NCBI GenBank assembly: GCA_963788655.1
Contig: CAWBHS010000080.1
Coordinates: forward strand, 1-64,000
Source: an uncultured Verrucomicrobiae bacterium
Lineage (GTDB): Bacteria; Verrucomicrobiota; Verrucomicrobiia; Limisphaerales; JAFGQR01
Direction: 5' to 3'
DNA: 64,000 nt
A model generated the notes under the pieces. It saw only the letters and a list, made by a program, of their open reading frames with translations, made no database searches and was not told the origin of the DNA. Position 1 is the first letter of the stretch; the number at the start of each line of letters is the position of its first letter. This document shows, in pieces, positions 2,004 to 26,619 of this stretch. The position numbers were made by a program, and so were the translations under genes.

Positions 2004-3167
2004 TCAACGAACGGATTCCGTCGCCATGGGTTGGCCGGGTATGAAAATGCTGGCGCCGCCTGGGGCGGTGGGAATCACACGATCGCACGCAATGCCCCAC
2101 AGGTTCCATTGGCCATCGATGTAGTTACCGTTGGCCGGCAACGGGCAGGCTTGCGCGTACAGATACCACCGGCCATTGATCGGATACAGCGCCGGAGTAG
2201 CTACATGATAGATCGTGTCGTCTCGGTACAGTCCCTCCCACTTCGTTTGGAGCACGGTATCCACATCCATTTGCACCCAACCGCGGGCAGGATGTTCGCT
2301 CACCGCGATGACGGGGCGCCAGCGTTTGCCGGCTGAAATGCCGACCTCCATGGTGAGCACGTAGGTGTTGCCCAGTTTGAAAACCTGGTGCCACTCGTAG
2401 TAGGCACCGGGCGTGGACGTAAAAATCTGGCCCATGCCCCGCGGGTCTTTTTCGTTGAAGTGCCGCGTCCAGTGCTTCCCGTCACGCGAGGTGGCCAAGC
2501 GGAAACCAGGCAGGATGCCATCCTTGCCGCGGTAGGAGTAATACATGAACCAATCCCACCGTTGCGCCTTCGCATCCCATTCGCGCAGCACCGCCGATTG
2601 CGAGGCCATCTGCTCGAAATACGGTGCCGCCGGCTCGGGCGCGAGCACCGGTTGCGAACCGACCCGCCGAATCGCCGCCGGGGTGATACCCGAATACCCG
2701 TCGGCTCCGGCCGGGCATAAGGCCAGACCGATCCGGTCCTGAACTGAGGCCGTGGTGCCGGAGTAGTAAATGTAGTAAGAATCTTCCTCGGGAAGGTAGA
2801 GAACGGCATCGAGCCGGATACTCCCGGAATCCCAGCCTGCTTTTCCGGGGCCGAACACCGGATTGCGCGCATCCTGGTGCCAGGTAAGCGGATCAGACTT
2901 GAGCGCCCACGCTTTGCCGATGAAGCACCGGCTCCGGTTGGTCGCCGGCACGCCCGAGTAGAACATCACCAAACGCGTCGGATCTTTGGGATTGGGCAGG
3001 ATACATGGCTCCTGCACCTGCTGCGACTCCCAGGCGGCGTCGCTGCGGCTGACGATGATTTTCCCGCGGATGGACTTCGCCGGAACCGCCGCGTCTGCGG
3101 CGTCGCTCTGCGAGGTCAGAGCAAACAATTGGAGCCCGACAACGAGCGCGATAAAGATCGATTTCAT
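2004..3167 (-). CDS. Secreted five-bladed beta-propeller glycoside hydrolase-like protein (GH32/43/130-like)
   Basis: Signal peptide MKSIFIALVVGLQLFALTSQSDA; WESQQVQEPCI, RNPVFGPGKAGWDSG, YYIYYSG, IGLA, HVATPAL propeller motifs. Confidence 0.65.
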   Translation of the reverse strand: MKSIFIALVVGLQLFALTSQSDAADAAVPAKSIRGKIIVSRSDAAWESQQVQEPCILPNPKDPTRLVMFYSGVPATNRSRCFIGKAWALKSDPLTWHQDARNPVFGPGKAGWDSGSIRLDAVLYLPEEDSYYIYYSGTTASVQDRIGLALCPAGADGYSGITPAAIRRVGSQPVLAPEPAAPYFEQMASQSAVLREWDAKAQRWDWFMYYSYRGKDGILPGFRLATSRDGKHWTRHFNEKDPRGMGQIFTSTPGAYYEWHQVFKLGNTYVLTMEVGISAGKRWRPVIAVSEHPARGWVQMDVDTVLQTKWEGLYRDDTIYHVATPALYPINGRWYLYAQACPLPANGNYIDGQWNLWGIACDRVIPTAPGGASIFIPGQPMATESVR

Positions 3168-3329
3168 TGAATGAAACTGAAGCATGGAACGACGGATAAC
3201 GCGGATACACGGATGAACAGGTTCTGCAATTAGGTTTAGGACCGTTCGTGCACGACGCTGACCCTCTCGTGGATCGTGAATGTGGTAATGGAGTTCGGGT
3301 GGCGCAATTGGTTTGAACACTTCATAAAG

Positions 3330-4146
3330 ACCGGGTAGGCGTAGGCGGTCACCCGCCCACGCCCCCCTAAGAACCGGACTTGAAAGTTTCCCTTCATCAC
3401 GGCTCAAGCCTCTCCAAGGCCACCCCGGATGCGGGGGACCCGCGTAACCAGGAGGCCGGTGACACCCAAAGGCGTCATGGACCTTCCCAATCCCACTTGG
3501 CAATACCGGTCGGCGGCCATATCGCGCCCGGCTCCTTTGGGCCGCAGCACCGAGAGGCACCAAGCGACGGGCGTCGCTCGTCCTATGCTTCTCTCGCTTG
3601 AAGGGGTTCCGCTGATTTTCTTGCCAGGAGACACCAGATCGACGTGGGCATATCCGGTCCATTACCGACCGGCCTTGGCTTGTTCGATCCTCTTCATGCT
3701 GCCTCCCCTGGGCCTGCCTTGCGGTCGGCTTGCCTGGATACTCTCCAGGCGGGAACTGGCAGCTTTTCCATGTTCCGCATTCTCCACAGGATGGGTTAGG
3801 TCCACTCTGTACACCGGCGGTGCGCCATTCGCGTCGGGCTACGTTAGACAGCCCGAACTTGACCGCTGGCCTTCTTTTGGCCGGAGCCTTAAAACAGCCT
3901 CGTATGGCTCGTTCCTCTGACGATGCTTGCGAGTGTTCACGTGGGTTGACCCTACCATCCGATTCTAGCGCCGCACCCGGATTGAGGCTCCCAGGCTGGC
4001 TACATTGTCGGGAAGGCTTCACACCCTGGACAGTAGCCTTGCGGCCGCCCGCCCAACGCATGCTTCCCTGGAATACCTGCCGCGAAAGGCAGGACTGAGT
4101 CAGGTTGCCCATGCTCAGCAGTGATGAATGCGACTTCATGTCACAA
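3330..4146 (-). mobile_element. ORF-less group II intron (IIB / CL-like ribozyme), about 817 nt
   Basis: Minus strand domain V GAGCCGTGATGAAGGGAAACTTTCAAGTCCGGTTC (3405-3371) with AGC triad and GAAA loop. Domain VI GGGGGGCGTGGGCGG-GTGA-CCGCCTACGCCT(A)CCCGGT with bulged A. 5' end TTGTGACATGAAGTCGC. EBS1 loop CTAACG pairs with 5' exon CGTTGG. No RT motifs. Confidence 0.9.
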
Positions 4147-4210
4147 CCAACGCAAAGCTGAGCGACTGGTGGACTCTCACTTGGTGCGCGGCGGCGCCAG
4201 CCGCTGAAAT
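4147..4210 (-). other. Degenerate attC-like hairpin forming the intron target (5' exon)
   Basis: TTTCAGCGGCTGG...CCAGTCGCTCAGCTTTGCGTTGG|CT: 9-bp stem plus an L'/R'-like arm. The R'' box (RYYYAAC) is absent. Confidence 0.5.
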
Positions 4211-6213
4211 TGAATCTTCTTCTCTGTGCCGTCCGTGAGGCGCACCGTCAGGCGGTCGTCCTGGAACTCGACGGAATTCACCGGACAGGCCGCCGCGCCC
4301 GCGGTGGGACAGAGCGCGTAAAGCAACGTCACGTTGCCCGATGCCTCCTTGCGATAGATCGCTGTCGGGATGGGCCGGATGCCTCCGTAGCCGCCCCCAT
4401 GATCGGGCAGCCAACCTTGAACCACCGGCTCTTTCTGGCCCTTCACGATTTCACGCTGTCGGCTCCGAAGGCCAGCACGGTCAGGTTGGGACCGGCGTTC
4501 TGCGTGGCAACGCGCAATCCGTCCACCACCGCGTTCTCGGCGTCGAGGTGTAATAGCGTTTCGTAGGTGTGCGATTTGCCGTCCATTGGCTCCAGTTCGT
4601 CGGCGATGATGAACAGGTCGGGCTTGAGGTAGAAGACATGTCGTGTCTGGCGAACCAGGTGTTGTGCTTTTGGCCCCAAGCCTTCCTCATAAACAGCCGC
4701 GGCATGGTCGAAGGTGTCGTTGCTCTCCCAGACGTGCAGGAGTGGCGTCTTCACGACGAAGGTCGCCCTGGACGACTTGCGTCGGTTCTGCTCCAAGCCA
4801 TCCACGAGCACCACGTTGTGGGCTCGGCTGCTGAGCACGTAACGCCGCCAATCACTCGCGTCATACGTGTAGGTGCCGCCTTCGACCAGCAGCGGCCGTC
4901 CGAACGCGGTGAGGATCACACTGAGTTTGTCCTCGTGCTGGTGACCGAACCCAAACGGTCCGCCGTCCATGCACAGCCAGAGCGCGTTCCGATCCCAGCC
5001 GCTGCGCATGATGAACTGGCCGGCATACGGAAACTCGTGCGACGTATGGTCGGGCGGTTGGCCTTCCTTGCCGTCCGTGGCAACCCACCGGAAATCGGCG
5101 CGCTGCGGAAATAGTCTGGCCCCTTTCTCCAAGTAACGCATCACGCTGCCCGCACCGGAATCGTTCAACGGCGGCGTGGTCCGATTCGGCTGCATGGAGT
5201 CGAGGAAATAGGCGAACATCTTTTCCATCTTGGCCAGGTAATCGTCCGGCACTTTGAAGCCGGTCTGCGCCACCAATTCCACCGGCCCGAGGAAATTGCG
5301 GAGAGCGACACCGTGATAGCCGGGTGCGAGTTCGATCTGCGCCCCATCCGGATACACCTGCACATCCAACTCGCGGTAAAGCCGGCCCAACGCCGTTTCG
5401 CGCCAGAGCTTGGCTTCGGTGAATTCCGGGAACAGTGCGCCGACGTGATAGAGGCCGTTGGCTTCCATCGTCAGCCAATTGCCCTGCCGGTGGAACTTCG
5501 TCAGATATTGCGCGTGCTCGACAAAGCTCTTCACCATCAGCCCGAGCGCGTCGTCATCAAACGCCTTGGCCGCAAGGAAACGGGGAAACACCTCCGGCCA
5601 GACAGTGACCGGTACGGATGCCGGCCTCAATGGTGCGCCAACGGGAGAAGGCGACATTGGCCGGCTTGTCCAGCGGCACCGGGCAGTCGTGTACCAGCTC
5701 TTGCAGCTCGGCGACGAATTCGCGGGCATATTTCTCGTCGCCGGTCGCGTAAAAGGCGCGGGCGAGGTCCAGCCACACTGCGTGCCGGCTGAGCTGCCAG
5801 GTCCATTCATGGTTGCGCGGCCATTTCGAGTCGGGTTGTGTCGTCGGATTGAACGCCCAATCAATCTTGTCCCCGAACTGCCACGGGATGCCGATGCTGG
5901 TGAAGCGGTGCTTGAGGGCGTTGTCCGCACCGCTGCTGCGGAAGCGCGGCTCCCGTCCAACCGCGTGCGGATCCAGTCCCCAGCCCGGAATTTGCCGAGT
6001 GCGGAAATGCTCGGCCAAAGCGTGTTTCGCGGCCGGCCAATCGGACTTGGTGATGGCCTCCTTAACCTCCGCCAAATCTGGCTGCGACACATCTACCAGG
6101 GCGAAGAACTGTTCATCGGTGAGTCGCGGGCCAGTCGCCGAAGACGACGCAGGGACGGCGGTGGCAGTGAACCAGCCGCCGAGGACAATGCCGATAAGGA
6201 TTGCGCGGATCAT
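4177..6213 (-). CDS. Heparinase II/III family polysaccharide lyase, secreted (frameshifted)
   Basis: Signal peptide; HEWTWQLSRH, GNWLTMEANGLY, DGAQIELAPGYH, GHQHEDKLS, SRAHNVVLVDG. Split over ORFs 5557-6246, 4443-6092 and 4177-4446. Confidence 0.85.
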
Positions 6214-26534: not shown

Positions 26535-26619
26535 TGGTGCCCGCGACAGGATTTGAACCTGTACCCGGTTACCGACTAGAACCTGAATCTAGCGCGTCTG
26601 CCAATTCCGCCACGCGGGC
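26535..26619 (-). tRNA. tRNA-Leu (CAG)
   Basis: GCCCGCGTGGCGGAATTGGCAGACGCGCTAGATTCAGGTTCTAGTCGGTAACCGGGTACAGGTTCAAATCCTGTCGCGGGCACCA; long variable arm, encoded CCA. Confidence 0.97.

Follow-up and report, generated by a model that had tools for sequence, protein, structure and literature searches.

Bacterial group II introns without an open reading frame (ORF) are rare and, according to a review of these elements (PMC4424553), nearly always accompany related introns that carry a gene for an intron-encoded protein (IEP). From T. elongatus, 17 ORF-less TeI3 introns have been described, and experiments there demonstrated that the IEPs of sister introns mobilize them in trans (PMC2882425). At integron attC sites, the IIC-attC introns of the S.ma.I2 lineage are described as homing to attC and as occurring in cassette arrays and in clusters of attC sites lacking integrases (CALINs); they are of class C in both ribozyme and IEP, have an intron-binding site 1 (IBS1) of 3–4 bp with a stem-loop replacing IBS2, and insert at R'' (TTGT/T) on the attC bottom strand, in antisense orientation relative to the cassettes (PMC7923331, PMC3001079). 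From the metagenome of a soda lake, Sonbol & Siam (2021; PMC7923331) reported UHB.I2, a group IIB1/CL1 intron beside an attC site whose IEP is devoid of endonuclease (En-minus). The subject of the present analysis is an ORF-less group II intron found in a stretch of 64,000 nt from the genome of an uncultured Verrucomicrobiae bacterium (assembly GCA_963788655.1, contig CAWBHS010000080.1, positions 1 to 64,000), the whole of which is called the window below.

Positions 4146..3330 of the window (minus strand) are a genuine group II intron of the self-splicing type, 817 nt in length. With a probability of roughly 0.8, it is an ORF-less IIB1 intron with a full ribozyme that is served in trans by the IEP of sister introns and belongs to a family homing to the R' core of attC, the window copy itself being ectopic. 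ORF-less introns mobilized in trans are known, as is a sense-strand IIB1 intron at attC, for which there is one published precedent, and a literature search found no published ORF-less attC-homing IIB intron. The element belongs to this scarcely described sense-strand attC-homing IIB1 lineage.

The family resembles the TeI3/TeI4 introns, as far as these are described in PMC2882425, in being of the IIB/CL type, with an IEP that is closest to TeI4h among solved structures, and in that its ORF-less copies share one deletion of ~1.5 kb in domain IV, keep the fit between exon-binding sites (EBS) and IBS, and outnumber the ORF-bearing copies. It differs from them in copy number (17 there, 7 here), in its host, in its IEP, which is without the C-terminal ~80 residues of TeI4h, in its target, the R' core of integron attC, and in its ends, UUGUG...GU; furthermore, mobilization in trans, experimentally shown in that case, is here proposed. 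With UHB.I2, compared by its published description only (PMC7923331), the family has in common a IIB1/CL1 IEP without endonuclease, a position directly after attC in cassette orientation, and non-consensus ends (5'-UUGCG..GU-3' there, UUGUG..GU here). In that description UHB.I2 carries its IEP, is a single copy on one contig and has no conserved flanking exons, whereas here the insertion lies inside R' (CGTTRG|), is paired with EBS1 and covaries with it in relatives, and the element is ORF-less and multi-copy. Membership of the IIC-attC group was also considered and is ruled out by the CL1-like IEP, by the EBS1 of 6 nt and by the attC top-strand orientation, the present element being a IIB1-like ribozyme that pairs with its exon over 6 bp and is inserted in the top strand at R', in cassette sense. 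The seven-copy ORF-less family and its ORF-bearing sisters would add to that of T. elongatus a second natural system in which to study the action of an intron reverse transcriptase (RT) in trans, and they link the IIB1 intron lineage to attC on the strand opposite to that of the textbook IIC-attC introns.

Boundaries and ribozyme anatomy

Application of the Rfam gathering thresholds to the 64-kb window gave three matches, two of them within 3330–4146 and the third a tRNA. The covariance model RF02012 (group-II-D1D4-7) matched at 4094..3969 with 61.9 bits (gathering score 34) and RF00029 (domains V–VI) at 3407..3330 with 49.6 bits (gathering score 40), while a permissive scan of 3000–4500 yielded nothing meaningful beyond these two. 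The intron, reading 5' UUGUGACAUG ... CCUACCCGGU 3', is complete, has limits common to seven copies in the genome, and shows a minimum free energy z-score of -5.5 relative to shuffles over its 817 nt.

Domain I (D1) occupies intron positions 7–378 (window 3769..4140, on the minus strand like all other domains), as judged from RF02012 and from a consensus fold of 26 relatives mapped onto the window copy. EBS1, CUAACG, is situated at 3842..3847 (minus strand) in the loop of the D1 hairpin GGGCUGUCUAACGUAGCCC, and was recognized by its complementarity to CGTTRG and its covariation with the 5' exon. Domain II (D2; intron 386–447, window 3700..3761) is made up of consensus-fold helices 17–20, in which 92–100% of cells are paired, and domain III (D3; intron 459–509, window 3638..3688, alignment columns 628–732) is shortened, without the distal stem of most relatives. 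Domain IV (D4; 3406..3637), of ~230 nt, contains no ORF according to blastn and tblastn comparisons with an ORF-bearing copy. The RF00029 alignment places domain V (D5), 35 nt long with an AGC triad, an AG bulge and a GAAA loop, at 3371..3405, and domain VI (D6), with a bulged A at window 3336, at 3333..3367. This A, the branch nucleotide, is intron position 811, the seventh nucleotide from the 3' end, bulged between GGG/CCC and GGCGU/ACGCC. When compared with the 34-nt D5 of the ORF-bearing relatives, the D5 of the ORF-less form has an inserted G that pairs with a changed C, and one additional U that bulges out in the stretch separating AGC triad and AG bulge; the difference is a compensated change, not decay.

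The fold of D1–D3 was derived from an alignment of the first ~560 nt of 26 introns, namely the window copy, two of its sisters, and 23 relatives retrieved by means of the IEP. The RNAalifold consensus comprises 120 pairs in 23 helices, 100 of which (pairs) are changed on both sides in at least one sequence. Standard pairs were found in 94.3% of cells, as against 36–42% with the partners slid by 1–3 columns, and none of 500 shuffles attained the observed value on any of five measures. The structure was predicted from the same alignment, and the slid-partner control somewhat favours it; even allowing for this, the compensatory pairs are very numerous. The window copy itself forms 104 of the 120 pairs, and eight of its 16 misses are gaps, because its lineage is without one D1 subdomain and the distal D3 stem.

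EBS1 is the complement of CGUURG and at the window site pairs with CGUUGG by six pairs, one of them G-U. CGTTAG or CGTTGG precedes each of the ten family copies whose 5' flank is present, the eleventh (on contig C99) starting at a contig end. These ten copies begin TTGTGACATG, and all 11 end CCTACCCGGT, save for one with a final C. Among relatives belonging to other phyla (L051, L118, L109, L089 and L113) the EBS1 loop and the 5' exon covary, the pairs of sequences being TTATCG/cgataa, GCGAAC/gttcgc, CATAAC/gttatg, CGAACG/cgttcg and TAACGG/ccgtta. The pairing, its covariation and the shared limits together fix the 5' splice site just before UUGUG.

The ends UUGUG...GU are common to all 11 family copies and the relative L052. 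The 5' ends of the 26 relatives were taken and both ends could be read by script for 19, some rows being copies of one intron, so that the independent events behind the following covariation are fewer than 19. A penultimate A is present in 14 of 14 relatives starting with G (13 with GUGCG, one with GCGCG), and a penultimate G in five of five starting with U (UUGUG, UCGCG or UUGCG), without exceptions. The positions concerned are window 4146 and 3331 and their equivalents in L052, L063, L077, L089, L113 and L110, the last being a further case with UUGCG...GGC. A contact between the first and penultimate nucleotides during the second step of splicing is reported (Chanfreau & Jacquier 1993, cited in PMC4238363), and in combination with the covariation this makes UUGUG...GU look like a co-adapted pair, a trait of the lineage rather than damage. 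Other than UHB.I2 (UUGCG..GU), no published case of such ends was found in a literature search. The natural covariation of U1 with a penultimate G may be useful for studies of this contact.

An earlier reading of this DNA from its letters and ORF translations (the sequence-only reading) had described much of this anatomy, in essence correctly. Its limits for the element, 3330–4146, are exact, being those shared by the 11 copies, and so are its variant ends TTGTG and GT, which coincide with the limits of identity among these copies and agree with the EBS1–IBS1 pairing. The intact D5 with AGC triad and GAAA loop was recovered by RF00029, with 35 nt rather than 34, and the bulged A of D6 seven nucleotides from the end is the A at 3336. 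A covariance-model match beyond D5 and a fold for D1–D3, two points on which that reading had staked itself beforehand, were both obtained (RF02012, 61.9 bits; 100 of 120 consensus pairs compensatory among the 26 relatives). The strand had been missed or misread: the element runs along the minus strand from 4146 (5' end) to 3330 (3' end).

The copy family and the loss of the reading frame

The source assembly amounts to 8.96 Mb in 115 contigs and is 86% complete. A blastn search of it with the intron returned seven full copies at 98–100% identity together with several fragments; four longer relatives were matched at their two ends and not in between. The seven short copies, on C80 (the window contig), C17, C49, C93, C59 (twice) and C9, are all exactly 817 nt long, and the long copies, on C44, C46, C99 and C50, measure 2209–2220 nt. 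Among the short copies there are 15 variable columns, no indels and 2–14 pairwise differences; their flanks differ, and all have one deletion in common. Truncated fragments of the family are present on C56, on C27 and at a contig end of C9.

An intact 502-aa RT/maturase frame with the YADD motif is found in the copies on C44 and C99, that of C46 being frameshifted and that of C50 broken into several frames. The IEP of the family matches the Pfam families RVT_N, RVT_1 and GIIM, as well as TIGR04416 with 364 bits (cut-off 300). Its best PDB match is 6ME0_C (TeI4h of T. elongatus; E 1e-167), residues 6–483 corresponding to 5–480 of 562; as nothing beyond residue 480 of the 562 is matched, the IEP is without the C-terminal endonuclease part, and Pfam detected no HNH family in it. 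The match to TeI4h places the intron family in the group IIB1/CL1 type, the A–F/CL/ML scheme of ORF classes as treated in PMC3552965 offering no means of placing this IEP, and group IIB had already been assigned by the sequence-only reading. The nearest IEP relative of the family is found in a Limisphaerales metagenome-assembled genome (MAG). The EBS1 loop has the same sequence in the ORF-less and ORF-bearing forms. The suggested satellite of an RT-encoding parent is borne out by these results: the genome search for sister copies and a parent produced seven short copies and four long relatives, the 2.2-kb introns with intact RT/maturase and identical EBS1 lying in the same genome. To judge from sequence, the seven copies most likely spread using the enzyme of the sister introns.

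The short form can be aligned with the C44 copy over intron positions 1–568 (90.4% identity) and over the last 92 nt (88%). The 157 nt between them (intron 569–725, window 3578..3422) have no significant similarity to C44 and are specific to the ORF-less form. The first ~59 nt of D4, up to intron position 568, are homologous to the D4 base of the relatives, with its ribosome-binding site and start region; the DNA homology ends at position 568, having passed by ~23 nt the place of the IEP start codon, which here reads ATA instead of ATG, and beyond it there is only an 11-nt exact match to an ORF-bearing relative (E 0.77). A tblastn search of the 817-nt intron with the family IEP gave a best E of 0.32 and no RT motifs, which bears out the short D4 (~230 nt) without such motifs that had been noted at the outset. 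The decayed IEP stub proposed along with it is not supported past the first few codons, the string RGGLGEA* taken for its C-terminus being the D4/D5 junction, at least 66 nt downstream of the IEP stop of the relatives. The ORF-less intron would be a derivative of a IIB1 (CL1-like) mobile intron that lost ~1.55 kb of D4 and with it the entire gene for the RT/maturase. Along the homologous part, the resemblance to C44 forms a mosaic, with 95.4% identity at intron positions 1–393, 85.3% at 396–463, 76.3% at 464–522 and 71.7% at 523–568, and in several stretches C50 is the closer match to the short form.

The genome is rich in group II introns in general, with 21 RF00029 matches, 18 of them above the gathering score. 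A second intron family is represented by five copies of identical score (47.2 bits, D5–D6 of ~105 nt) on C39, C60 (twice), C68 and C107. The long copies on C44 (29705–29789) and C46 (2429–2532) share more than 80 nt of near-identical 5' flank, i.e. the same attC, and differ in their 3' flanks; either copies of the intron recombined with one another or contigs were joined in assembly, both of which could account for this. Outside this genome, related introns stand head to tail in a Desulfatiglandales MAG (L110:888–3937), where a 2.2-kb copy starts directly after the D6 end of another intron and is followed at once by a copy of ~825 nt (UUGCG...GGC), apparently ORF-less. Further short forms are possible in Shewanella benthica (L098, about 3099–3736) and in L072 (from 3368).

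Integron attC sites as the target

The conserved 5' flank of the family, consisting of GTCG[C/G]T[C/G]A, 5–7 nt and CGTTRG, is the 3' end of an imperfect palindrome of ~100–130 nt that recurs throughout the genome. A pattern search retrieved 35 sites with enough flank, nine of which are occupied by an intron. Alignment of 20 unoccupied repeats revealed the anatomy of attC, in the order R'', L'', variable paired centre, L', spacer and R'. R'' is GCCTAAC, GGCTAAC or GTCCAAC (RYYYAAC), the L'' box ends in CGAAC, R' is CGTTAGGC or CGTTGGGC (GTTRRRY), and L'' and L' occur in compensatory variants (GAGCGA/TCGCTC versus CACCGA/TCGGTG). A profile of these repeats found 90 matches in the assembly at E <= 0.01, in same-strand arrays spaced 0.4–1.3 kb; one such array consists of nine attC-like matches on C49 between 290279 and 299235. 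The integron integrase family TIGR02249 was matched above its cut-off at three loci, C59:66134–67021, C49:288364–289293 and C69:40024–40947, the first two with one internal stop each and the third apparently intact. The integrases on C49 and C59 are divergent from arrays with ORF-less copies 6 kb and 4.4 kb away, respectively. The chromosomal integrons of the genome are found at C49:288364–299235 and C59:60300–67021 and also at C69:40024–40947. Interpretation of the 5' flank as an ECF-type (extracytoplasmic function) promoter or as the C-terminus of a gene family was dropped, the repeat being an imperfect palindrome with R'', L'', L' and R' boxes.

Matches to the profile end exactly at the intron 5' end for the copies on C17, C49, C59 (both) and C9, for the long copies on C44 and C46, and for the truncated copy on C27. 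An attC 3' end together with cassette orientation is found in the genome-wide search for five of the seven ORF-less copies and for C44 and C46, and a local search adds C50 and, in part, C93. The orientation of the introns is that of the attC top strand, which is cassette sense and opposite to intI. Removal of the intron restores an R' of the type GTTRG[G/C]C, namely GTTAGGC (C93, C44, C46, C50), GTTAGCC (C49 and one of the copies on C59, C59b) or GTTGGCC (C17). The insertion point of the family lies directly behind CGTTRG, within the R' core of the integron attC, and the strand entered is the one coding for the cassettes. To judge by eye, seven relatives (L050, L052, L063, L077, L089, L113 and L118) appear to adjoin attC-like 3' arms with matching R''/R' boxes; relatives at such arms come from Desulfobacterota, Chlorobiaceae and a Limisphaerales MAG.

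On the window contig (C80) the attC profile has no match at all. Directly upstream of the intron lies GTCGCTCAGCTTTGCGTTGG (4147..4166, minus strand), made up of an attC L'-like box, a spacer and IBS1, CGTTGG at 4152..4147, and corresponding to profile positions 107–129. In the local search the matched part of the 133-position profile was 107–129 at the window site, 3–129 at C17, 11–129 at C50 and 47–129 at C93. The window copy is read as having retrotransposed ectopically, its site being a 20-nt sequence that imitates the 3' arm of attC (L'-spacer-R'). If so, ~22 nt of linear sequence, not the folded attC, would suffice for recognition. The sequence-only reading had overlooked integron attC sites as the target, of which the window site is a partial mimic only.

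A wider proposal, for which we see an even chance, is that a broad IIB1 lineage homes to the R' core on the coding strand of attC, that its EBS1 co-evolves with the local R'/R'', that U1...G(n-1) replaces G1...A(n-1) in it, and that the window element, as its non-autonomous arm, could modulate cassettes. Examples in which EBS1 can be compared with the local attC are L089, with CGAACG next to GTTCG/CGAAC, and L118, with GCGAAC next to GTTCGC. If the proposal is true, R' would be split just 3' of the G|TT crossover point, so that introns, cheap ORF-less satellites especially, could modulate the excision and expression of cassettes in large chromosomal integrons.

Splicing and mobility and the alternatives

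From the anatomy, covariation, copy family, ORF-bearing relatives and target observed, we infer splicing at the present day, the acting IEP and the route of priming as follows. The intron would be co-transcribed with the flanking host genes. A consensus scan in and next to the intron for an outward promoter or terminator gave no promoter-like and one unrelated terminator-like site, and the lack of either kind of site between the intron and the upstream genes is compatible with co-transcription. The RT/maturase of the ORF-bearing sisters (C44/C99 type) would bind the intron in trans and aid its splicing by branching at A811. The lariat ribonucleoprotein would then reverse-splice into DNA containing CGTTRG, paired as IBS1 with EBS1 CUAACG and preceded by GTCG[C/G]T[C/G]A. 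Priming of the complementary DNA would depend on replication, because the IEP is without its endonuclease part. The natural target would be the R' core (GTTRRRY) at the attC 3' end on the cassette-coding strand, and the window copy would be a product of ectopic retrotransposition.

A number of results weigh against this proposal. Contigs from the sequencing runs X1, X2, X4 and X6 contain no joint across the intron, only parts of the intron and no flanks being covered. The matching runs hold small shares only (at most 0.22 of sampled words), their contigs are partial and 90–99% identical to the intron, and they speak neither for nor against splicing. No EBS2/IBS2 pairing was found: when the introns were scanned for 6-bp complements to the exon between positions -7 and -17, the candidates fell in no consistent alignment column. 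The extra bulged U of D5 lowers the RF00029 score to 49.6 bits, compared with 63.9 bits for the ORF-bearing copies, and the ends UUGUG...GU depart from the consensus GUGYG...AY. The D4 base, which is the usual IEP-binding region, is only 72% identical to the C44 type (intron 523–568), so that a C44-type IEP may or may not recognize the ORF-less D4 base. Moreover, its mosaic identity and its local closeness to C50 indicate that the ORF-less form is not a direct or recent deletion of any ORF-bearing copy now present. As for the target, the repeats were picked by the target motif, which makes the L'–R' part of the profile circular; the R'' and L'' boxes, the arrays and intI are independent of this choice. 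Finally, the assembly, apart from being fragmented (115 contigs) and 86% complete, has 5.6% contamination.

A 759-nt contig from a sediment metatranscriptome library (X4) corresponds to the intron for 634 nt over 3492–4125 with 26 differences, includes part of the ORF-less-specific D4, and then diverges. It points to the existence elsewhere of an intron closely related to the short form, and DNA carry-over in the library is possible.

Several of these points would also be expected of a dead relic, i.e. an intron whose ORF-less copies spread in the past or by DNA recombination and whose RNA, carried in a transcript or silent, no longer splices or moves. The lack of a splice junction in the contigs from any run examined (flanks uncovered), the non-canonical 35-nt D5 scoring below that of the ORF-bearing copies, the non-consensus ends, the divergence of the D4 base from the available IEP-bearing copies and the truncated fragments on C56, on C27 and at the C9 contig end could all be accommodated in this way. 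Yet the seven copies are free of indels, with only 15 variable columns in 817, and all of them keep D5, D6, the branch A and EBS1, each behind a matching IBS1. Furthermore, the change in D5 is compensated by the pairing of the inserted G with the changed C, the odd ends recur in introns of several phyla that have an intact IEP and show the covariation expected of a functional contact, and two intact IEP genes of the family are present in the genome. A relic is therefore considered unlikely, and the reading as an intron served in trans by its sisters is preferred.

Far less probable is an assembly artefact, in which a full-length RT-bearing intron would have had its ORF collapsed out of the contig, a possibility raised by the sequence-only reading itself. 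Intron copies do break this assembly, C99 ending exactly at an intron 5' end and C9 inside a copy, but seven copies of 817 nt have unique sequence on both sides, differ by ~10% from the RT-bearing copies and possess the private 157-nt segment of D4. This segment is covered by contigs from public runs (X1 record 4, 3440–3615 with 3 differences; X4, 3492–4125), and one of the runs with such contigs may be the source sample.

That the 711-codon ORF (4139..2004, minus strand) is a real gene with incidental RNA-like features can be dismissed: although one frame is open across intron and spacer, by chance at ~1e-3 to 1e-4 (an estimate from 62% G+C), and continues into the downstream gene in five of seven copies, its 711 aa contain no Pfam family, the frame is not kept open in C50, the same 817 nt precede unrelated genes, homology of the downstream gene begins at ATG 3167 or later and never inside the intron, and the conservation is explained by base-pair covariation. 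The ORF, which had been called spurious from the beginning, consists of the open intron frame and the spacer fused in frame to a gene for 387 aa at 2004..3167 (minus strand). The read-through at five of seven copies (binomial p about 0.045) can probably be put down to chance, the DNA being rich in G+C. For gene annotation, the element yields a false call of a 711-codon gene, and similar over-long calls occur at sister loci.

The downstream gene, whose ATG lies 163 nt beyond the intron 3' end, encodes a protein with a signal-peptide-like N-terminus and without a Pfam or NCBIfam family. Comparison of the 2-kb locus with 40 related genomes identified this gene (76–81% identity; G035, G004 and G005) and no syntenic intron-less junction. 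The DNA match in G005 starts exactly at ATG 3167 and those of the other relatives at 3102, none starting upstream. On the other side of the intron, an 89-codon ORF without a family (4177..4446, minus strand) has its TGA stop 31 nt before the intron and is itself preceded by a heparinase II/III-like gene (4443..6092, minus strand), identified from the ORF list and a family search. The tRNA among the three Rfam matches of the window is a tRNA-Leu (anticodon CAG) at 26535–26619 (minus strand), detected by both Rfam and ARAGORN.

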